A stretch of 23,508 nucleotides of DNA, taken from IMG/VR virus record IMGVR_UViG_2663763227_000016. One strand, given 5' to 3'. This document shows, piece by piece, positions 4,529 through 23,508 of this stretch. Within the stretch, counting starts at the first letter, position 1. Each line of letters starts with the position of its first letter. The notes below the pieces were generated by a model. The model was not told the DNA's origin, ran no database searches, and was given only the letters and a program-made list of their open reading frames with translations. The DNA is from a virus. Its lineage: Duplodnaviria; Heunggongvirae; Uroviricota; Caudoviricetes. A program made the position numbers and the translations under genes.

Positions 4529-4586
4529 TTTAAAAAGGGTGGCAGAGCAGTCACGGAGTAGAACTGATGCCACCAAAGACTACACA
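4529..4586 (-). ncRNA. dicF: DicF small regulatory RNA (ftsZ-targeting), processed from the operon transcript
   Basis: The minus strand reads ...GTAGTCTTTGGTGGCATCAGTTCTACTCCGTGACTGCTCTGCCACCCTTTTTAAAG, nearly identical to my recollection of K-12 DicF. It has the long-range stem GGTGGCA/TGCCACC followed by a U-run. Ends are approximate (+/-5 nt). Confidence 0.8.
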
Positions 4587-4911
4587 TGGATATTGTGGCG
4601 GGGCTGTCACTTAAGCGTATGGTCAGCCTGACAACCCGGTGTCCTCAAGGGGAAGGAATAACCCCGCCATACTTACCGCCGCGCCATTTCGCGGATTGCC
4701 ACAACCGGAAGCGCACGGTCGAATTAAATTTAACGACAAAGTACAGAGAGACGAGCTTCTCCGTGTGCTTTCGCGTTATGCTCTGACTTTTCAGAGAAAT
4801 ATCCTTTCAGTAAACTGTCAGTGCCGGATGTTCACCCGTGTCCGGCGCACGCACTCCACTTCACCCGTGGAGAACTCCTTAATTACCAACCTTAGCTTCG
4901 TTGGTTAGCTA

Positions 4912-10159: not shown

Positions 10160-10846
10160 ATGACCCCAATAAAAATATTTATGACTATTGCTGATTTCAA
10201 ACGGCCTAAATTGGAGCTCCCAAACGGGGCAAACAAACTACTACTGCACTCTTGCTGTGCTCCATGTTCCGGTGAAGTGATGGAGGCGCTTCAGGCCTCG
10301 AGAATCGACTACACCATCTTTTTCTACAACCCGAACATTCATCCTCAGAAAGAGTATTTAATTCGTAAGGATGAAAATATTCGCTTTGCTGAACAACACG
10401 GCGTGCCGTTTATCGATGCTGATTACGACACCGACAACTGGTTTGAACGTGCCAAAGGAATGGAATGGGAGCCTGAGAGGGGGATCCGTTGTACCATGTG
10501 TTTTGACATGCGTTTTGAGCGGACAGCGTTGTACGCTGCTGAAAATGGTTTCAGTGTGATCAGCAGTTCACTGGGCATTTCACGCTGGAAAAATATGCAG
10601 CAGGTTAACGAGTGTGGGCGGCGAGCTGTTGCGCATTATCCGGGTATGGTGTACTGGGATTATAACTGGCGCAAGCAGGGCGGCTCGTCCCGTATGATTG
10701 AAATCAGCAAGCGCGAAAAATTCTATCAGCAGGAATATTGTGGCTGTGTGTATTCTCTGCGCGATACCAATCTACACCGCAAATCTCAGGGACGCCCTCT
10801 TATCAAAATTGGCCAACTCCACTACGGAAAAGAAGAGAAGGAGTGA
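10160..10846 (+). CDS. QueH-like epoxyqueuosine reductase (DUF208 family) moron
   Basis: 228-aa ORF with the N-terminal [11 protein letters not shown] motif I recognise from DUF208/QueH, plus further Cys residues (CTMCFD, CGCVY). There is no clear ribosome-binding site at either candidate start (10160 or 10181). Confidence 0.6.
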
Positions 10847-11083
10847 TTTTATGGATCACCTTTCTGATTGATTTCATATTGGCGAGGTGACGTGAGTTAA
10901 GTAGAATGGCTGCGGGTGCTTGAGGCTATCTGTCTCAGGCATGAACACTGAAAGGCAGATAGAGAAAAGCCCCAGTTAACATTTCGCGTCCTGCAAGACG
11001 CTTAACATTAATCTGAGGCCCAATCTATGTCTCACAAATGTAGGTTAGCCTCTTACGTGCCGAAAGGCAAGGGGAAGCAGGCT

Positions 11084-11239
11084 ATGAAGCAGCAAAAGGC
11101 GATGTTAATCGCCCTGATCGTCATCTGTTTAACCGTCATAGTGACGGCACTGGTAACGAGGAAAGACCTCTGCGAGGTACGACTCCGAACCGGCCAGACG
11201 GAGGTCGCTGTCTTCACAGCTTACGAACCTGAGGAGTAA
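11084..11239 (+). CDS. hokD: Hok/Gef-family type I toxin (HokD/RelF-like)
   Basis: 51-aa ORF MKQQKAMLIALIVICLTVIVTALVTRKDLCEVRLRTGQTEVAVFTAYEPEE, near-identical to Gef/RelF as I recall them. GGGGAAG ribosome-binding site; an in-frame upstream extension (from 11027) resembles a mok-type leader. Confidence 0.85.
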   Translation: MKQQKAMLIALIVICLTVIVTALVTRKDLCEVRLRTGQTEVAVFTAYEPEE

Positions 11240-12736: not shown

Positions 12737-13102
12737 ATGACTGAACGCATAGAATTTGTTTTGCCTTACCCGCCAACGGTGAACACTTACTGGCGACGTC
12801 GTGGCAGCACATATTTTGTATCAAAAGTCGGTGAGCGTTATCGCCGTGATGTGGCGCTTATTGTTCGCCAGCAGCAACTGAAATTAAACCTGTCCGGAAG
12901 GCCGGCAATAGAAATTATTGCAGAGCCACCGGATAAGCGCCGTCGTGACCTGGACAATATCCTGAAGGCACCACTGGATGTACTGACGCATGCGGGGCTG
13001 CTCATAGACGACGAGCAGTTTGATGAAATTAATATTGTGCGCGGTCAGCTTGTTCCTGGTGGGCGGTTGGGGATAAAAATCACAGAACTGGAGTACGCAT
13101 GA
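12737..13102 (+). CDS. rusA: Holliday junction resolvase RusA
   Basis: 121-aa ORF containing YPPTVNTYW...RRRDLDNILKAPLDVLTHAGLLIDDEQ...GGRLGIKITELE, closely matching RusA as I recall it. Confidence 0.9.
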   Translation: MTERIEFVLPYPPTVNTYWRRRGSTYFVSKVGERYRRDVALIVRQQQLKLNLSGRPAIEIIAEPPDKRRRDLDNILKAPLDVLTHAGLLIDDEQFDEINIVRGQLVPGGRLGIKITELEYA

Positions 13103-13788
13103 ATAACCAGTATTTACAGTTTGTTCGTGAGCAACTCATGATTGCCACCGCCGATTTGAGTGGATCAACAAAAGGGCAGCTTGAGGCCTGGCAGGAGAAT
13201 GCCATGTTTGATACAGGGCGTTACAGGCGTAAAAAAATCCGGTACCGCGATGAAGTGACTGGAAAAATGATAACGCGGGATAATCCACCAATCCCGGGAA
13301 AGCAATCGCTGGCGAAGGGGGTGTCAATTCCTCTCGTCAGTCCGGTTGAGTTTTCGACATCATCGTGGCGGCGGGCTGTTCTGTCTCTTGAAGAACATCA
13401 TAAAGCCTGGTTGTTGTGGTGTTACAGCGGGAGTATTTGTTGGGAATATCAGATCGCGATAACGCAGTGGGTGTGGAATGAATTTAAAACCCGGTACGGC
13501 ACCAGAAAAATTGCAGGGAAAACGCAGGAGCGCGTGAAGAAGTTGATCTGGCTGGCGGCACAGGATGTCAGAGGATGGATTACCGGGTGTGAGGTCTACC
13601 AGAGACAGGAGCTTGCCAGACTGTGTGGAGTTAAGCCTGATAACTGGAGCCATAATTATGCGAACTACTGGCGTGAGATGTGCGATATTTTTAAGAGTCT
13701 CGATAGAGAATCTGTGATTTGCACCGTGAAAATAAGAGCGCAACAAAAAGCGACTTTTTCACGACGAGATATTGCAAAAGTCAATTAA
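13099..13788 (+). CDS. Putative late-gene antiterminator (Q-like), by position
   Basis: 229-aa ORF overlapping the rusA stop (ATGA), the last gene before a promoter-like TATAAAT box and a strong terminator. I could not match it to lambda Q by sequence. Confidence 0.4.
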   Translation: MNNQYLQFVREQLMIATADLSGSTKGQLEAWQENAMFDTGRYRRKKIRYRDEVTGKMITRDNPPIPGKQSLAKGVSIPLVSPVEFSTSSWRRAVLSLEEHHKAWLLWCYSGSICWEYQIAITQWVWNEFKTRYGTRKIAGKTQERVKKLIWLAAQDVRGWITGCEVYQRQELARLCGVKPDNWSHNYANYWREMCDIFKSLDRESVICTVKIRAQQKATFSRRDIAKVN

Positions 13789-14350: not shown

Positions 14351-15400
14351 ATGCTTAATACTGTAAAAATATCCAGTTGTGAGTTAATCAACGCCGACTG
14401 CCTGGAATTTATCCGGTCGTTACCCGAAAATTCTGTTGACCTGATAGTCACGGACCCGCCGTACTTTAAAGTGAAGCCTGAGGGCTGGGATAACCAGTGG
14501 AAGGGCGACGATGATTACCTGAAGTGGCTGGACCAGTGTCTGGCGCAGTTCTGGCGGGTGCTGAAACCTGTCGGAAGTCTTTACCTGTTCTGTGGTCATC
14601 GCCTGGCATCTGATATCGAAATCATGATGCGTGAACGCTTCAGTGTGCTGAACCATATTATCTGGGCGAAGCCGTCCGGACGCTGGAACGGATGCAACAA
14701 GGAAAGCCTGCGGGCGTATTTCCCCGCCACAGAGCGCATTCTGTTCGCGGAACATTATCAGGGGCCGTATCGTCCGAAAGATGCCGGGTATGCGGCGAAG
14801 GGCAGTGCACTGAAACAGCATGTGATGGCCCCGCTGATTTCTTACTTTCGTGATGCGCGCGCTGCCCTGGGGATAACGGCAAAACAGATTGCAGATGCCA
14901 CAGGAAAGAAAAACATGGTGTCGCACTGGTTCAGTGCCAGTCAGTGGCAGCTACCGAACGAAAGCGATTATCTGAAATTACAGTCGCTGTTTGCCCGGGT
15001 GGCAGAAGAGAAACATCAGCGCGGTGAACTGGAAAAGCCCCACCACCAGCTGGTGGATACGTATACGTCACTGAACCGGCAGTATGTGGAGCTGCAGAGT
15101 GAATATAAGCATCTGCGGCGGTATTTTGGTGTGACGGCGCAGGTGCCGTACACGGATGTGTGGACACATAAACCGGTGCAGTTCTATCCCGGGAAACATC
15201 CGTGCGAAAAACCGGCAGAAATGCTGCAGCAGATAATCAGCGCAAGCAGTCGTCCGGGTGACCTGGTTGCAGATTTTTTTATGGGCTCAGGTTCAACGGT
15301 AAAAGTGGCACTGGCGCTCGGGCGTCGTGCGATTGGCGTTGAACTGGAGACCGGACGTTTTGAGCAGACAGTCAGGGAAGTTCAGGATTTAATCGTTTGA
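14351..15400 (+). CDS. DNA methyltransferase, beta-class amino-methyltransferase (N6-adenine or N4-cytosine), no restriction partner
   Basis: 349-aa ORF with the catalytic DPPY motif (LIVTDPPYF) near the N-terminus and the AdoMet-binding FxGxG motif (DFFMGSGST) near the C-terminus, the beta-class order. No endonuclease gene is adjacent. Confidence 0.85.
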   Translation: MLNTVKISSCELINADCLEFIRSLPENSVDLIVTDPPYFKVKPEGWDNQWKGDDDYLKWLDQCLAQFWRVLKPVGSLYLFCGHRLASDIEIMMRERFSVLNHIIWAKPSGRWNGCNKESLRAYFPATERILFAEHYQGPYRPKDAGYAAKGSALKQHVMAPLISYFRDARAALGITAKQIADATGKKNMVSHWFSASQWQLPNESDYLKLQSLFARVAEEKHQRGELEKPHHQLVDTYTSLNRQYVELQSEYKHLRRYFGVTAQVPYTDVWTHKPVQFYPGKHPCEKPAEMLQQIISASSRPGDLVADFFMGSGSTVKVALALGRRAIGVELETGRFEQTVREVQDLIV

Positions 15401-15449
15401 AACGGATGAGATTGCAGAATTAATTACGCACCATTATTATTCTGCTCCC

Positions 15450-15525
15450 GGCCCTTTAGCTCAGTGGTGAGAGCGAGCGACTCATAATCGCCAGGTCGCT
15501 GGTTCAAATCCAGCAAGGGCCACCA
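15450..15525 (+). tRNA. tRNA with CAU anticodon (Ile2-lysidine type or Met; ileZ-like)
   Basis: Manual cloverleaf: acceptor GGCCCTT/AAGGGCC, D-arm GCTC-AGTGGTGA-GAGC, anticodon loop CTCATAA, T-arm GCTGG-TTCAAAT-CCAGC, encoded CCA. Confidence 0.85.
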
Positions 15526-15532
15526 TCACATA

Positions 15533-15609
15533 CCGCCATTAGCTCATCAGGAAAGAGCGCCAGCTTTCGAAGCTGGTTGCGCGGAGTTCGGGTCCCCGAA
15601 GGCGGTCCA
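15533..15609 (+). tRNA. Possible tRNA-Arg (anticodon UCG), degenerate or pseudo-tRNA
   Basis: Manual fold: D-arm GCTC-ATCAGGAAA-GAGC, perfect anticodon stem CCAGC/GCTGG with loop TTTCGAA, encoded CCA. It has mismatches in the acceptor and T stems, a non-canonical T-loop (TTCGGGT) and starts with C. Confidence 0.45.
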
Positions 15610-15622
15610 TTATCTGTATCCT

Positions 15623-15699
15623 GCGTTGTTAGCTCAGCCGGACAGAGCAATTGCCTTCTAAGCAATCGGTCACTGGTTCGAATCCAGTACAACGCGCCA
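15623..15699 (+). tRNA. tRNA-Arg (anticodon UCU, reads AGA)
   Basis: Canonical cloverleaf: acceptor GCGTTGT/ACAACGC, D-arm GCTC-AGCCGGACA-GAGC, anticodon stem ATTGC/GCAAT with loop CTTCTAA, T-arm ACTGG-TTCGAAT-CCAGT, encoded CCA. Confidence 0.9.
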
Positions 15700-15743
15700 C
15701 ACTTATTTTCCCTGGCTCGCTTTTGCGGGCTTTTTTTAAATGT

Positions 15744-15958
15744 CTCACAATTCAGGCGGTTGACTGTTGTCTGGTTTGCGGGGAGTTTGTTAAAAGAAAC
15801 TGGCATGGTGAATCCCCCTGTGCGGAGGGGCAATCAGCGAGTAGGTATATGGGATAATCGCGGATTCAGGTGCTGGTACTGAATTCACCGGGAGGCACCC
15901 GGCACCATGCAATGGCACATAGCGCCACTCTCCAGCCCCTCTCCGGAGGGGCTTTTCT
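15744..15958 (+). repeat. Structured non-coding module, copy A (TTGACT box, two hairpins, terminator-like GCCCCTC-TCCG-GAGGGGC-TTTT)
   Basis: Shares with copy B, at a 468-bp offset, the blocks CTCACAATTCAG, CATGGTGAATCCCCCTG.GCGGAGGGGC, CACCGGGAGGCACCCGGCACCATG and CCCCTCTCCGGAGGGGCTTT. Confidence 0.6.
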
Positions 15959-16147
15959 GTGCCGGATACATCACAGTTTCTGGAACCTTAGGTACTACAG
16001 TATCAGTCAGGGTGCTATATTTTCAGATGTGATGAAAGCCTGTCAGCAGGCAGGGCGTATCGGAAATGACCCAGTAGAGAAAACGTTGACTCAGATACCG
16101 GTGCTGAGTTACCGGGAAACCGGCATCACATGACCGCTATCCTTCCA

Positions 16148-16211: not shown

Positions 16212-16444
16212 CTCACAATTCAGTAAGTTGACAGTTGCCTGTCAGACTGGGCATTTGTTAAAAAAATTTCGCATGGTGAATCCCCCTGAGCGGAGGGGCG
16301 ACTGGTGACGGTATAATCTCTGATTATCAAAACGAGAATGACGCGGGTTTAGTGGCACCGGGCTGAACTCACCGGGAGGCACCCGGCACCATGTGCATGA
16401 TGATACAGATACGCGGCTTTAGCCCCTCTCCGGAGGGGCTTTCT
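16212..16444 (+). repeat. Structured non-coding module, copy B (TTGACA box, GGTATAAT, hairpins, terminator-like hairpin)
   Basis: Diverged tandem copy of module A. It contains TTGACA (16229-16234) and a consensus-like TATAAT (16309-16314). Confidence 0.6.
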
Positions 16445-16673
16445 TATGGACAAAAAAAGCCCGCGCTGGGAGACGCGGGCGGCAAGGAATAAACAATAAA
16501 ACGTGAAGTAATATTTCAGCTGGCGAATAATACCCCATAGTAATCACTCTGCGCAACTGCGCGGTCTTTTTCGAATTGCGGGCTGTAGTCTCCCTTCTGC
16601 CATTGTCCTGTAACTTCCGGACTTCAGCCTGCTCCTTATCTGACTCACAACATTATCCCGCCCGGGAGGATTC

Positions 16674-18527
16674 ATGGCATTTAAACACTATGACGTGGTC
16701 AGGGCGGCATCGCCGTCAGACCTTGCGAAACGACTGACACAAAAACTGAAGGAGGGCTGGCAGCCGTTTGGTAGTCCGGTGGCCATAACCCCTTATACCC
16801 TGATGCAGGCGATTGCAGCAGAAGGTGATGTGGTCGTCAGTGGTGCAACTGAGCCGGAGTGGTACTACGTCATCGTACTGGCCGGGCAATCCAATGCCAT
16901 GGCTTACGGTGAAGGGCTTCCGCTTCCGGATTCATACGATGCGCCCCATCCGCGCATTAAGCAACTGGCCCGTCGTAACACAGTGACTCCCGGTGGTGAA
17001 GTATGCGTATTTAACGACATCATTCCTGCTGACCATTGTCTGCATGATGTTCAGGATATGAGTACGATTAACCATCCCCGGGCTGACCTGAGCAAAGGGC
17101 AGTACGGCTGTGTCGGACAGGGCTTACATATTGCCAAAAAACTGCTTCCGTATATCCCTAATAATGCGGGGATCCTGCTGGTACCATGCTGTCGTGGTGG
17201 TTCGGCATTCACCCAGGGCACGGAGGGGACATTCAGCGAGTCCACGGGAGCCAGTCAGGATTCGGCTCGCTGGGGAGTGGGTAAGCCGTTATATCAGGAT
17301 CTGCTTTTCCGCACGAAGGCAGCATTGCAGAAAAACCCGAAAAACGTTTTGCTGGCGATATGCTGGATGCAGGGGGAATTCGATATGACGAATGCCAGTT
17401 ACGCCCAGCAGCCAGCAGCATTTCTTGCAATGGTACAGCAGTTCCGTGCTGACCTTGCCGGGCTGGCGGCGCAGTGTCACGGTGGAAGTCCGGCATCAGT
17501 CCCCTGGATTTGTGGCGACACGACATACGCGTGGAAACAAGAACACGGTACGCAATATGAAGTGGTATATGGTGCATATAAAGGTAAAGAATCCCAGCAG
17601 ATTTATTTTGTTCCCTTTATGACCGATGGTAGCGGAGTTAATACACCGACAAACAACCCGTCAGAAGATCCTGATATTGCCGGGTCTGGTTATTACGGTT
17701 CGGCATCCCGAACGAACAAAAACTGGGTATCATCAAATCGCCCGACGCATTTCAGCTCATGGGCGCGTCGTGGCATTATTCCCGATCGTATGGCAACTGC
17801 TATTCTGAACGTAGCCGGTCGCACCTTAGCCTTCATTAGTGGTAAGGCACCGGAAATCAAACCCTCGCCCGGCGGCGACACGCCATCGGGGCCGTCTGAA
17901 GATGCATCCATACGCACAATCTCCCTGTTGCCGACAGCCGGAGACGCTGCTGCGCAGGGCTGGAGCATTAAGAATGGCGGAATTCAGTTGTCAGATGGTG
18001 TATTTAAGATCACCAAGCAGAGCAATAAAGCCTGGTCCCTGACGCGCCCGGTGGATGACGCAGTCTCCCTGCTGACACGGGGTGGCAGACTGAGCTGTAA
18101 GTTTCGACTGTCAGGCGCACTGACCAACAACCAGTTCGGTCTGGGAATTTATCTGTATACCGATGTAGCGTTACCTGACGTCGTGGCGATGACCGGGACT
18201 GGTAACCCGTTCCTGATGTCGTTCTTCACCCAGACCACAGACGGCAAACTGAATCTGATGCATCACAAGAAAGCAGGAAACACAAAGTTGGGCGAGTTCG
18301 GGAATTACAGTAACGACTGGCAGACGCTGGAGCTGGTGTTCACCGCCGGCAGTGCCACGGTTACTCCGAAACTGAATGGAGTGGCTGGCCCGGCATTCCA
18401 GGTCATAAAAGACAGTCTGACACTGGGGCTGAATGCGCTGACGCTGACGGATATTACCAAAAATGCAGCGTATGGCGTTGAGATAGAAAGTCTGGTGCTG
18501 GAGATAAATGCACCGGCATCATCATAA
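16674..18527 (+). CDS. Prophage sialate O-acetylesterase (NanS-p-like; SGNH/SASA esterase with C-terminal domain)
   Basis: 617-aa ORF with GGGAGGA ribosome-binding site. It carries the SGNH-hydrolase GQSN block (VIVLAGQSNAMAYGEG), and its position (after tRNAs, before the lysis genes) is that of nanS-p in Stx-phage-like prophages. Confidence 0.75.
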   Translation: MAFKHYDVVRAASPSDLAKRLTQKLKEGWQPFGSPVAITPYTLMQAIAAEGDVVVSGATEPEWYYVIVLAGQSNAMAYGEGLPLPDSYDAPHPRIKQLARRNTVTPGGEVCVFNDIIPADHCLHDVQDMSTINHPRADLSKGQYGCVGQGLHIAKKLLPYIPNNAGILLVPCCRGGSAFTQGTEGTFSESTGASQDSARWGVGKPLYQDLLFRTKAALQKNPKNVLLAICWMQGEFDMTNASYAQQPAAFLAMVQQFRADLAGLAAQCHGGSPASVPWICGDTTYAWKQEHGTQYEVVYGAYKGKESQQIYFVPFMTDGSGVNTPTNNPSEDPDIAGSGYYGSASRTNKNWVSSNRPTHFSSWARRGIIPDRMATAILNVAGRTLAFISGKAPEIKPSPGGDTPSGPSEDASIRTISLLPTAGDAAAQGWSIKNGGIQLSDGVFKITKQSNKAWSLTRPVDDAVSLLTRGGRLSCKFRLSGALTNNQFGLGIYLYTDVALPDVVAMTGTGNPFLMSFFTQTTDGKLNLMHHKKAGNTKLGEFGNYSNDWQTLELVFTAGSATVTPKLNGVAGPAFQVIKDSLTLGLNALTLTDITKNAAYGVEIESLVLEINAPASS

Positions 18528-20417: not shown

Positions 20418-20885
20418 ATGAACCGCGTACTGTGCGTGGTCATCATTGCCCTGCTGGTGGCCTGTGGTGCGCTTAGTCTGGGGCTGAATCATTACCGTGA
20501 TAACGCCATTACCTACAAAGCCCAGCGCGACAAAAATGTCAGAGAACTGAAGCTGGCGAACGCGGCAATTACTGACATGCAGATGCGTCAGCGTGATGTT
20601 GCTGCGCTCGATGCAAAATACACGAAGGAGTTAGCTGATGCGAAAGCTGAAAATGAAACTCTTCGCGCTGACGTTGCCGCTGGTCGTAAGCGCCTGCGTA
20701 TCAACGCCACCTGTCCAGGTCCCGTGCGTGAAGCCACCGGCACCGCCCGCGTGGATAATGCAACCGGCCCCCAACTGGCAGACACCGTTACACGGGATTA
20801 TTTCACCCTCAGAGAGCGGCTGATGACGATGCAGAAGCAACTGGAAGGGGCGCAGGAATATATCCGTACTCAGTGCCTGAAATAA
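20418..20885 (+). CDS. Rz: Rz i-spanin
   Basis: 155-aa ORF with an N-terminal transmembrane segment and coiled-coil-like periplasmic domain, containing an embedded +1-frame lipoprotein ORF. Confidence 0.85.
20638..20823 (+). CDS. Rz1: Rz1 o-spanin lipoprotein, embedded in Rz in the +1 frame
   Basis: 61-aa ORF with GGAG ribosome-binding site, signal peptide plus lipobox (LVVSAC) and a proline-rich mature region ([16 protein letters not shown]). Confidence 0.8.
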
Positions 20886-21694: not shown

Positions 21695-21879
21695 AATGTT
21701 TCCCCATATTCAGTGTTGCTGATTTGTATTATCTGAAGTTGCTTTTACGTTAATTTGATGCAGATCAATTAATACGATACCTGCGTCATAATTGATTATT
21801 TCTCGTGGTTTGATGGCGTACACACATGTTGTGATAAACCTTATATAGATGATAATCATTATCATTTTCGTGGGTCCTT

Positions 21880-22050
21880 TCCGGCGATCCGACCGGTTAC
21901 GGGGCGGCGACCTCGCGGATTTTCACTATTTATGAAAATTTTCCGGGATCCATGTCCGGTTTCTCTGCAAGTTAACCATATGAAAAATATAAAAACATGC
22001 TTTCCATGAACCGGACATGCGCAAAAAATAGACACTAAAACCGGACATGA
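21880..22050 (+). other. cos site: lambda-type cosQ/cosN (12-nt cohesive end GGGCGGCGACCT at 21902-21913) with a cosB bearing three CCGGACATG repeats
   Basis: 21869-21947 is near-identical to my recollection of the lambda cos junction (GGTTACG|GGGCGGCGACCTCGCGG.TTTTC.CTATTTATGAAAATTTTCCGG). Downstream repeats: CATGTCCGG (21951-21959, inverted) and CCGGACATG (22011-22019 and 22041-22049). Confidence 0.75.
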
Positions 22051-22097
22051 CCGGTTTTGTTGTGATTGTGAGGTGAGAGTTTTTTGCGAGGTGAGGA

Positions 22098-22607
22098 GTG
22101 GCTACGCAGACTGAAGTTGCCAGGCATTTAAGTCTGACCGATCGCCAGCTTCGCAGATTGCAGAAATTGCCGGGTGCCCCGATATCGAATAAGCGAGGGC
22201 AACTGGATCTGGATGCCTGGCGCGATTTTTACATATCGTATCTGAGAAGAAGTAAAAACGATGTGCCTGATGGCGATAGCGAAGACGACTATGAGGAGAA
22301 ATTGCTTATTGCCAGATGGGAACTGACAGCAGAACAGGCTGTTACACAGCAGTTAAAAAATGAGGTGTCAAAAGGAAAACTTATTGACACCGGGTTCTGT
22401 ATTTTTGCCCTCAGCAAGCTGGCAATGGCGTTATCCAGTACGCTTGATTCCATCCCTTTATCCATGCAGCGACAGTTTCCTGATTTAACACCGCGCCATC
22501 TTGACCATCTGAAAACCCTTATTGCGAAGGGGGCAAATCAGTGTGCGCGGGCGGGGGATAAATTACCGGATTTACTCGATGAATATATCAGAGCAACAAC
22601 TGAATAA
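22098..22607 (+). CDS. Terminase small subunit (Nu1-like)
   Basis: 169-aa ORF with an N-terminal helix-turn-helix, alignable by eye to lambda Nu1 (ours ...LPLSMQRQFPDLTPRHLDHLK vs lambda ...LPLSVQRRFPELENRHVDFLK). It sits immediately after cos and before the large subunit. The GTG start has a poorly spaced ribosome-binding site, so the exact start is uncertain. Confidence 0.8.
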   Translation: MATQTEVARHLSLTDRQLRRLQKLPGAPISNKRGQLDLDAWRDFYISYLRRSKNDVPDGDSEDDYEEKLLIARWELTAEQAVTQQLKNEVSKGKLIDTGFCIFALSKLAMALSSTLDSIPLSMQRQFPDLTPRHLDHLKTLIAKGANQCARAGDKLPDLLDEYIRATTE

Positions 22608-22608
22608 T

Positions 22609-23508
22609 ATGATGAGTGCTGTCACAACAGCATTACAGCCCCTGATAAGGGCATTGCCGGTGACGCCAGTTGAATGGGCTGATCAAAATTATTATCTGCC
22701 TAAAGAATCTTCATATGGTGAGGGAGAATGGAAAACGCTGCCGTTCCAGATCGCCATCATGAACAGCATGGGGAATGATCAGATCCGGACTGTTAATCTG
22801 ATTAAATCTGCCCGTGTTGGCTATACAAAGATGTTGCTGGGAGTCGCCGGGTATTTTATTGAGCATAAATCCCGAAACAGTCTGCTTTTTCAGCCCACGG
22901 ATTCTGCCGCTGAAGATTTTATGAAGTCTCACGTGGAGGCGACGATTCGCGATGTTCCCTGCCTGAAAAAACTTTCTCCCTGGCTGGGACGTAAACATCG
23001 TGATAATACCATCACGCTGAAACGCTTTTCATCGGGTGTGGGCTTCTGGTGCCTGGGCGGCGCTGCCGCCAAAAACTACCGTGAAAAATCCGTGGACGTG
23101 GTCTGCTATGACGAACTTTCCTCGTTCGAGCCGGATGTCGAAAAAGAGGGCTCGCCAACCCTGCTGGGGGATAAGCGTATTGAGGGCTCGGTATGGCCAA
23201 AATCCATTCGCGGCTCGACGCCTAAAATAAAAGGCTCCTGCCAGATCGAAAAAGCGGCCAACGAGTCGGCGCATTTCATGCGTTTTTATGTGCCCTGCCC
23301 GCACTGTGGGGAGGCGCAGTATCTGAAATTTGGCGATGAGTCCACGCCTTTTGGCCTTAAATGGGAGAAGGACAGCCCCGAAAGCGTTTTCTACCTCTGT
23401 GAACATCATGGCTGCGTGATCCATCAGTCTGATATTAGACGTCAACTAGTTTTGCCGACTCGCGCCAACTATACTGGCCGCCCCCTTCAGTGCGACATCA
23501 AGTCGCGC
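22609..23508 (+). CDS. Terminase large subunit (gpA-like), 3'-truncated by the window edge
   Basis: Open frame from ATGATG at 22609 to the window end (300 codons, no stop). Strong similarity to lambda gpA N-terminal blocks as I recall them (VEWADQNYYLPKESSYGEGEWKTLPFQIAIMN; WCLGGAAAKNYREKSVDV; GDKRIEGSVWPKSIRGSTPK; FMRFYVPCPHCGEAQYLKFGD). Confidence 0.9.
   Translation, partial: MMSAVTTALQPLIRALPVTPVEWADQNYYLPKESSYGEGEWKTLPFQIAIMNSMGNDQIRTVNLIKSARVGYTKMLLGVAGYFIEHKSRNSLLFQPTDSAAEDFMKSHVEATIRDVPCLKKLSPWLGRKHRDNTITLKRFSSGVGFWCLGGAAAKNYREKSVDVVCYDELSSFEPDVEKEGSPTLLGDKRIEGSVWPKSIRGSTPKIKGSCQIEKAANESAHFMRFYVPCPHCGEAQYLKFGDESTPFGLKWEKDSPESVFYLCEHHGCVIHQSDIRRQLVLPTRANYTGRPLQCDIKSR

Follow-up and report, generated by a model that had tools for sequence, protein, structure and literature searches.

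tRNA genes located 3' of the late antiterminator gene Q are a general feature of lambdoid phages, a supply of tRNAs for rare codons has been proposed as the role of such cassettes, and a 1997 report of an ileX-like gene beside stx2 has been cited in this connection (PMC3636060, on phage SfI). Phages 21, SfI, Sf6, and ST64T carry cassettes with tRNA-Asn(GUU) and/or tRNA-Thr(UGU) in this niche, after Q and before the lysis genes. The closest described system is the ileZ-argN-argO cluster of the Shiga toxin (Stx) phage 933W, whose record (NC_000924) annotates ileZ, argN (with the note "CGG?"), argO (with the note "AGG?"), a putative tRNA promoter pT, terminators flanking the cluster, and stx2AB directly 3' of it. 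By megablast we found the cluster in 289 phage records, most of them from Stx2-converting phages, in which the genes are labeled ileZ/argN/argO or tRNA-Ile/Met plus two tRNA-Arg and usually lie 3' of a DNA methylase gene; the region is also present in 3,061 of 5,426 complete Escherichia coli genomes, where a single genome can hold as many as 13 copies and the copies number 7,597 overall. The cluster of 933W and other Stx2 phages was reportedly described by Plunkett and colleagues in 1999 and by Schmidt and colleagues in 1997, the latter being reference 28 of PMC3636060. The gene names used here rest on the 933W GenBank annotation, as our literature searches for the three names and for a link between 933W tRNAs and rare codons returned nothing relevant. 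Here, we analyze 23,508 nt of DNA from a virus of the Caudoviricetes (IMG/VR record IMGVR_UViG_2663763227_000016; "the window" denotes this whole stretch), in which an earlier note had recognized three tRNA genes with a degenerate middle member. By its sequence, the cluster is the already known ileZ-argN-argO cluster of Stx-type and lambdoid prophages, and exactly this sequence is annotated in RefSeq. Its middle gene, argN, is in our reading probably an impaired, early-stage pseudogene between two useful operon members, ileZ and argO, and we give this reading a probability of roughly 65%.

ARAGORN called exactly three tRNA genes in the window, all on the plus strand, and together with Rfam placed them where the earlier note had located its three-tRNA cluster, at 15450–15699. 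With the Rfam model RF00005, for which the gathering score is 29 bits, the genes with the anticodons CAU, UCG, and UCU score 72.5, 42.9, and 70.1 bits. The corresponding E-values for the whole window are 2.3e-14, 3.4e-06, and 1.1e-13 (1.3e-08 for the middle gene when searched locally) and, therefore, none of the three matches is due to chance. The outer two genes are canonical, as had been claimed, and are annotated as tRNA-Ile and tRNA-Arg by PGAP. In ileZ, the CAU anticodon is carried on a body of the tRNA-Ile2 type and not of the tRNA-Met type; the gene is 85–92% identical to the core tRNA-Ile(CAU) that every one of the 5,426 complete E. coli genomes contains (host ileX/ileY, the tRNA-Ile2 with lysidine-CAU), and it has the pairs C4-G69 and C5-G68, which we take to be the pairs read by TilS. 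It is a paralog of the host tRNA-Ile2 and would read AUA once C34 is converted to lysidine. In argO, every pair is intact and the T-loop is canonical. This gene is predicted to read AGA and, weakly, AGG; it has the same anticodon as host argU and, like argU, reads codons that are rare in host genes. Unlike these host rare-codon tRNAs, ileZ and argO are prophage-borne extra copies within one small operon. To our knowledge, E. coli K-12 lacks a tRNA-Arg(UCG) and, hence, any counterpart of argN.

The window and 933W share the gene order CAU-UCG-UCU, the putative promoter and terminator, and the position of the cluster between Q/methylase and nanS-p/lysis genes. Between them, ileZ differs at 0 of 76 positions, argO at 1 of 77 (position 37), and argN at 8 of 77, giving identities of 100%, 98.7%, and 89.6%, respectively. 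The spacers between the genes are 7 and 13 nt long in the window and 9 and 13 nt long in 933W. In 933W, the cluster is followed by stx2AB, whereas two copies of the small RNA (sRNA) STnc100 follow it in the window, and the window prophage differs further in having another type of Q and in being defective.

The window allele of argN aligns to RF00005 over its full length (model positions 1–71 of 71) and bears every element that the earlier note had read in the middle gene, namely a perfect anticodon stem (CCAGC/GCUGG), a UCG anticodon, mismatches in the acceptor stem and T-stem, and an odd T-loop. When the cmscan alignment was read against the sequence, the acceptor stem was found to be interrupted by A6·A67 and the T-stem by A52·C62, while the D-stem is perfect. 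The T-loop is UUCGGGU with G58 in place of A58, a nucleotide that is near-universal among tRNAs and that the intact argN alleles carry. Position 58 is the sole exception among the conserved tertiary nucleotides; U8, A14, G18G19, A20, A21, U33, G53, U54U55C56, C61, and the encoded CCA are all present. E. coli arginyl-tRNA synthetase (ArgRS) recognizes A20, C35, and G36 or U36, and this identity set is complete in the window allele, in which the D-loop AUCAGGAAA gives A20 and the anticodon consists of U34, C35, and G36. The discriminator is U73; host Arg tRNAs have A or G at this position.

Intact argN alleles have perfect stems, with the acceptor stem CCGCCAU/AUGGCGG, the T-stem CGGGG/CCCCG (or CCUCG), and the T-loop UUCGAGU or UUCAAGU. 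The existence of these alleles shows that the defects in the window are lesions on one allele and not features of the family. Relative to the intact consensus, the window allele carries G52A, A58G, U67A, and C32U, the first three of which break structure (Table 1), and relative to 933W it also has changes in the D-loop and the variable loop. Among 39 distinct alleles, the pair 52:62 is unpaired in 8 and the pair 6:67 in 9. The Rfam scores descend along a series from 58.4 and 56.0 bits for intact alleles (L012 and L006) and 54.8 bits for 933W argN, through 54.0 bits for an allele with G58 as its sole defect (L036), to 42.9 bits for the window type and 37.5 bits for the window type with an additional G50A (L056); heavily mutated (L005), scrambled, deleted, or fused copies fall below 29 bits.

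Folding with ViennaRNA lends weak, model-based support to impaired folding of the window argN. The cloverleaf of the window allele has an energy of −20.0 kcal/mol compared with −28.3 to −31.3 kcal/mol for intact alleles, and the minimum-energy fold of the same sequence is 9 kcal/mol more stable. In the preferred fold, the acceptor stem is reduced to 5 bp and a mis-registered hairpin, UUCGG(54–58)/CCGAA(63–67), takes the place of the T-arm, with a probability of 0.78 versus 0.01 for the canonical T-arm. A58G and U67A lengthen an existing 3-bp complementarity to this 5-bp hairpin with the loop GUCC, which may be a coincidence. Minimum-energy folding is used here as relative support alone, because ileZ, argO, and the intact argN of 933W also fail to adopt the cloverleaf as their minimum-energy fold.

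The argN lineage as a whole behaves as a tRNA. Between the Arg alleles and the Lys(UUU)-type relatives, compensatory double changes occur at four stem pairs (4:69, 7:66, 27:43, and 30:40), and across the family 96% of cells are paired compared with 29–53% when the partners are slid; therefore, argN is a genuine tRNA lineage that evolved under structural constraint. The window gene derives from a genuine tRNA-Arg(UCG) for CGA/CGG. The anticodon arm is the most conserved part of argN, and together with the D-stem it is identical to that of cellular tRNA-Arg(UCG) from Planctomycetota, Omnitrophota, and Terriglobia. In a scan of species-representative genomes, Escherichia alone yielded argN itself; the other matches are ordinary cellular tRNA-Arg(UCG) genes that share the anticodon arm, and they point to no donor lineage.

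To compare related loci, we used an exact 32-mer at the 3' end of ileZ as an anchor, which resulted in a listing of 125 loci that is a non-random and redundant sample. In 116 related loci, we classified the slot that follows ileZ. It holds an intact tRNA-Arg(UCG) in 35 loci, a gene with intact stems and an aberrant T-loop in 7, the window type in 16 (4 of them with extra lesions, i.e., G10U, G50A, or CCA to UCA), an otherwise defective gene in 4, and unrecognizable remnants (scrambled anticodon arms, internal deletions, or argN::argO fusions) in 37. The remaining loci have a Lys(UUU)-like gene with C33 and a T-stem mismatch (13), an intact Lys(UUU) gene (2), a UCU anticodon on an argN backbone (1), or no argN at all (1). 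The slot is thus intact in only about one-third of the loci, while ileZ and argO remain intact. For a set of 29 haplotypes without gaps, we obtained a nucleotide diversity of 0.087 for argN, 0.017 for argO, and 0.169 for the spacer between them, so that argN is about five times as diverse as argO, and a broken pair is found in argN of 11 haplotypes and in argO of 4. Within the clade of the window type, argN has six segregating sites and eight alleles compared with two sites and two alleles for argO.

The same picture emerges from exact alleles in the 5,426 complete E. coli genomes, where the window allele is present in 560 genomes (annotated as tRNA-Arg), the 933W allele in 275, and a scrambled remnant in 912. 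This remnant (80 nt with the anticodon arm replaced, e.g., L002 1627–1726) has a match of any kind in 1,813 of the genomes, all unannotated in RefSeq, and no other state of the slot is as common among complete E. coli genomes. Isolated viable phages (mEp460, phiP27, and others) carry it too and, therefore, argN is dispensable for phage growth. A survey of 50,697 deposited phage records did not find the window-type allele, which E. coli AR_0013 and O157:H7 PV15-279 carry, and both prophages with this allele that we inspected are disrupted by insertion sequences (IS). Three loci (L022, L049, and L093) have a hybrid after ileZ in which the 5' half of argN runs into the 3' half of argO within the anticodon loop; its acceptor strands are mismatched, it is not called as a tRNA, and the two Arg tRNA genes apparently recombined with each other, deleting the sequence in between. 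In other loci, ileZ is followed by Lys(UUU)-Thr(UGU)-Gly(UCC) (L008, L045, L052, and 10 more IMG/VR loci), by Lys(UUU) alone (L003), by Arg(CCG)-Gly(UCC) (L021), or by the argN with the UCU anticodon (L031). The commonest Lys(UUU) copy has C33 in place of U33 and a T-stem mismatch and scores 44.4 bits.

The cluster is best read as an autonomous small tRNA operon with a conserved sigma-70-like promoter and a terminator, both predicted. The putative promoter aligns with the site labeled "pT; putative tRNA promoter" in the 933W record. A generic promoter scan did not flag it, as its −35 element matches at three of six positions, and we therefore relied on comparative conservation: the pattern TTGNNN-17 nt-TATTAT is present 9–10 nt 5' of ileZ in 123 of the 125 listed loci, over 30 different upstream contexts. 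3' of argO, a terminator-like hairpin followed by a T-run is homologous to a possible rho-independent terminator annotated in 933W. The conservation of pT over 30 contexts and the presence of the terminator indicate that the module travels with its own promoter and terminator, and in O157:H7 an identical tRNA module is found behind a different Q gene and without the methylase.

To assess the demand for these tRNAs, we compared the codons of the prophage genes with 15,398 codons from 39 core host genes of the same genome. The odds ratios for early/regulatory and late prophage genes, respectively, are 5.0 and 3.3 for AUA, 10.4 and 6.3 for AGA, 7.7 and 4.0 for AGG, 2.3 and 2.3 for CGG, and 1.5 and 1.7 for CGA, both CGA values being not significant. 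The earlier note had held that all three anticodons decode codons rare in E. coli. This stands for AUA and AGA (and AGG), which are rare in the host sample and 3- to 10-fold enriched in the prophage, and it is weakest for CGA/CGG, at about twofold. CGA and CGG are already read in E. coli by tRNAs with the anticodons ICG and CCG, and the small excess of these codons together with the host tRNAs fits weak selection on argN.

These observations can be combined into a scheme for the operon, in which the steps of RNase P processing, lysidine modification, and aminoacylation, as well as the loss of argN function, would follow from established tRNA biology. We infer that transcription of the operon starts at pT, probably supplemented by Q-antiterminated transcripts that reach it from the late promoter. 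The three-tRNA precursor would be cut by RNase P and trimmed, ileZ would receive lysidine from host TilS and read AUA, and argO would read AGA/AGG, so that the two genes would supply tRNAs for codons that are 3–10 times more common in prophage than in host genes. The window argN keeps its ArgRS identity set and, with a weakened acceptor/T helix and T-loop, would be poorly folded, matured, and retained; it would then serve mostly as a spacer, would add little or nothing to decoding, and would represent an early stage of the decay seen in many sister prophages. With tRNA pseudogenes and decaying tRNA genes of grounded prophages it shares structure-breaking substitutions, a diversity greater than that of its neighbors, and sister copies that are scrambled, deleted, or fused. 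Unlike these, it is only mildly damaged and still called by all predictors; its loss of function is presumed.

Several points weigh against this interpretation. The middle gene passes every predictor and is labeled tRNA-Arg in hundreds of RefSeq genomes. It retains A20, C35, G36, U33, G18G19, U55C56, G53-C61, and CCA, by which charging and some function are possible. The exact allele is common, and hitch-hiking need not be the reason for its presence in 560 genomes, since it could be tolerated or useful. Alleles whose stems are otherwise perfect (L027, L036, and L072) have G58 as well, so that this change may be tolerated by itself. The folding energies leave out tertiary contacts and modifications, and the intact 933W allele, too, has a low probability of the canonical T-arm. 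The comparative sample, anchored on ileZ, is non-random and redundant, and our literature searches turned up no report on how any argN allele is expressed, processed, or aminoacylated.

The earlier note had left two options for the middle gene, a pseudo-tRNA and a tRNA that is unusual yet functional, and had proposed scores far below predictor thresholds, together with the lack of a mature transcript, as a refutation. This two-way reading is supported by our analysis. ARAGORN calls the gene, its Rfam score lies above the gathering score, and the RefSeq annotation accepts it as well. The comparative data lean to a decaying gene. That argN is instead a fully functional, unusual tRNA-Arg(UCG), in which the A·C and A·A mismatches are tolerated in a G+C-rich 12-bp acceptor/T helix and which, after maturation and charging by ArgRS, serves the prophage as a reader of CGA/CGG, is a possibility to which we attach some weight while considering it unlikely. 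It is consistent with predictor thresholds being exceeded, with intact identity nucleotides A20, C35, and G36 and an intact anticodon arm, with the number of genomes that carry the exact allele, and with the 2.3-fold enrichment of CGG in prophage genes, and a UCG tRNA would be a new decoding capacity for E. coli, which is known to have none of its own. However, all three of the lesion substitutions relative to intact alleles fall at structural positions, the score lies 12–15 bits below those of intact alleles, and further lesions (G10U, G50A, and CCA to UCA) have accumulated in the same allele family. Moreover, sister prophages and viable phages manage without argN, the allele is absent from the deposited phage records surveyed, and the cloverleaf is strongly disfavored in the folding model. 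At the other extreme, the low score of the middle gene relative to its neighbors and its mismatches could be expected of a non-tRNA spacer that resembles a tRNA by chance, but such a look-alike is refuted by the two Rfam E-values given above for this gene, by clear homology to intact tRNA-Arg(UCG) alleles, and by the compensatory pair changes in the family, and its likelihood is close to nil.

Phage tRNAs can evade anticodon nucleases (PMC10264068); a phage tRNA-Lys(UUU) counters PARIS, and the tRNA-Thr(UGU) of the lambdoid phage 21 protects against P2-OLD (PMC12445682). The cassettes of phage 21 and the other lambdoid phages named above carry tRNA species different from those of the window, and counter-defense has been demonstrated experimentally for the phage 21 tRNA-Thr (PMC12445682); nothing comparable is known for ileZ/argN/argO. 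The slot after ileZ could be a fast-evolving counter-defense cassette, with its tRNAs replacing or shielding host tRNAs that anticodon nucleases attack, in which the changes in the window argN are adaptive and yield either a tRNA that resists nucleases or a decoy that resembles a tRNA but has an altered T-arm. Elsewhere the slot is occupied by Lys(UUU)-Thr(UGU)-Gly(UCC), Arg(CCG), or the argN backbone with a UCU anticodon, Lys-UUU and Thr-UGU are anticodons targeted by PARIS/PrrC and P2-OLD, A58G and U67A jointly extend the alternative hairpin, and argN is five times as diverse as argO. Against this, known resistance changes sit in the anticodon stem-loop (PMC10264068, PMC12445682), which is the most conserved part of argN, and the changes in the window break general tRNA architecture. 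Deletions, scrambling, and fusions of argN are common, as decay predicts, no Arg(UCG)-directed nuclease applies since E. coli has no such host tRNA, and the hairpin observation was made post hoc. We therefore regard an adaptive counter-defense origin of the argN changes as very improbable, and the specific proposal that A58G and U67A were selected together through the UUCGG/CCGAA hairpin for a resistant tRNA or decoy, in a slot of rapid counter-defense turnover, as more doubtful still. The niche after ileZ may serve defense evasion besides codon supply; for the window argN this is speculative.

Table 1. Features of the window (positions within the 23,508-nt stretch)
Feature	Position	Strand	Basis and remarks
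DicF RNA beside dicB	4537–4588	−	
QueH homolog (epoxyqueuosine reductase)	10181–10846	+	tRNA-modification enzyme
sok antitoxin RNA with hokD	10914–11089	+	
Q (late antiterminator)	13099–13788		RefSeq and Pfam; 229 aa, PF06323
DNA methyltransferase	14351–15400		RefSeq; Pfam N6_N4 methylase
Putative sigma-70 promoter pT	15412–15440	+	−35 TTGCAG 15412–15417, 17-nt spacer, −10 TATTAT 15435–15440, 9 nt 5' of ileZ
ileZ, tRNA with CAU anticodon	15450–15525	+	ARAGORN (as tRNA-Met(CAT)), Rfam 72.5 bits; PGAP tRNA-Ile
argN, tRNA-Arg(UCG), damaged allele	15533–15609 (anticodon 15567–15569)	+	ARAGORN, Rfam 42.9 bits
argN lesion 1, A52 (G in intact alleles)	15585	+	Allele comparison; A52·C62 T-stem mismatch (C62 at 15595)
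argN alternative hairpin UUCGG/CCGAA	15587–15600	+	Folding model
argN lesion 2, G58 (A in intact alleles)	15591	+	Allele comparison; U54·A58 T-loop pair lost
argN lesion 3, A67 (U in intact alleles)	15600	+	Allele comparison; A6·A67 acceptor mismatch (A6 at 15538)
argO, tRNA-Arg(UCU)	15623–15699	+	ARAGORN, Rfam 70.1 bits
Intrinsic terminator-like hairpin and T-run	15714–15738	+	Terminator scan; 7-pair stem GGCTCGC/GCGGGCT, then TTTTTTT
STnc100 sRNA, first copy	15774–15964	+	Rfam, 136 bits
STnc100 sRNA, second copy	16242–16451	+	Rfam, 165 bits
SASA/NanS-p-type esterase	16674–18527		RefSeq; Pfam SASA
Rz-like lysis gene, frameshifted	~20418–20885		AR_0013 annotation
IS3-family transposase remnant and start of group II intron reverse transcriptase (ltrA)	21866–23508	−	Between lysis genes and terminase

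The E. coli AR_0013 chromosome matches the window with 100% identity, within a lambdoid prophage that lacks stx and adjoins ompW. Across the matching region, PGAP (RefSeq) annotates Q, a DNA methyltransferase, tRNA-Ile, two tRNA-Arg, a SASA esterase, a holin, and a lysozyme. The AR_0013 prophage begins with integrase, excisionase, exonuclease, and dicB (with DicF RNA), followed by repressor-region and replication genes, and continues with queH, hokD/sok, a DUF968 gene, rusA, Q, the methyltransferase, the three tRNA genes, the esterase, holin, and lysozyme. The cluster thus lies 3' of the Q and methyltransferase genes and 5' of the nanS-p esterase and lysis genes, which is the niche where Stx phages carry stx; the window prophage has no stx genes. 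The prophage is defective, with a frameshifted Rz-like lysis gene and with IS3-family remnants and a group II intron before the terminase gene. Two open reading frames that overlap the tRNA genes, 15504–15833 on the minus strand and 15577–15882 on the plus strand, were considered as genes and rejected.

Other features of the prophage were noted along the way. The queH homolog, which encodes a tRNA-modification enzyme, lies in the early/nin region a few kilobases 5' of the tRNA operon, and sok/hokD and DicF/dicB are usual cargo of Qin/Rac-like lambdoid prophages. The tRNA operon is separated from the nanS-p esterase gene by the two tandem STnc100 copies, both of which close with an identical terminator-like hairpin, AGCCCCTCTCCGGAGGGGCT. 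In 933W, a single STnc100 copy lies just 3' of stxB beside the anti-sRNA AsxR, and in other relatives AgvB adjoins STnc100. The placement of STnc100 in the window compared with 933W therefore puts the insertion point of stx between the tRNA terminator and STnc100.

The cluster carries little weight as a discovery, having been named and annotated since the 933W genome. Counts of "prophage tRNA-Arg(UCG)" in E. coli overstate the number of functional genes, as the damaged allele in 560 genomes is labeled an ordinary tRNA-Arg, while the scrambled sister in 1,813 genomes carries no annotation. The variety of cassettes after ileZ, including Lys-UUU and Thr-UGU, connects the niche with recent studies of phage tRNAs in counter-defense. 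The near-invariant ileZ and argO, the decaying argN, and the codon counts together suggest that selection on the operon is for the decoding of AUA and AGA/AGG and not of CGA/CGG.

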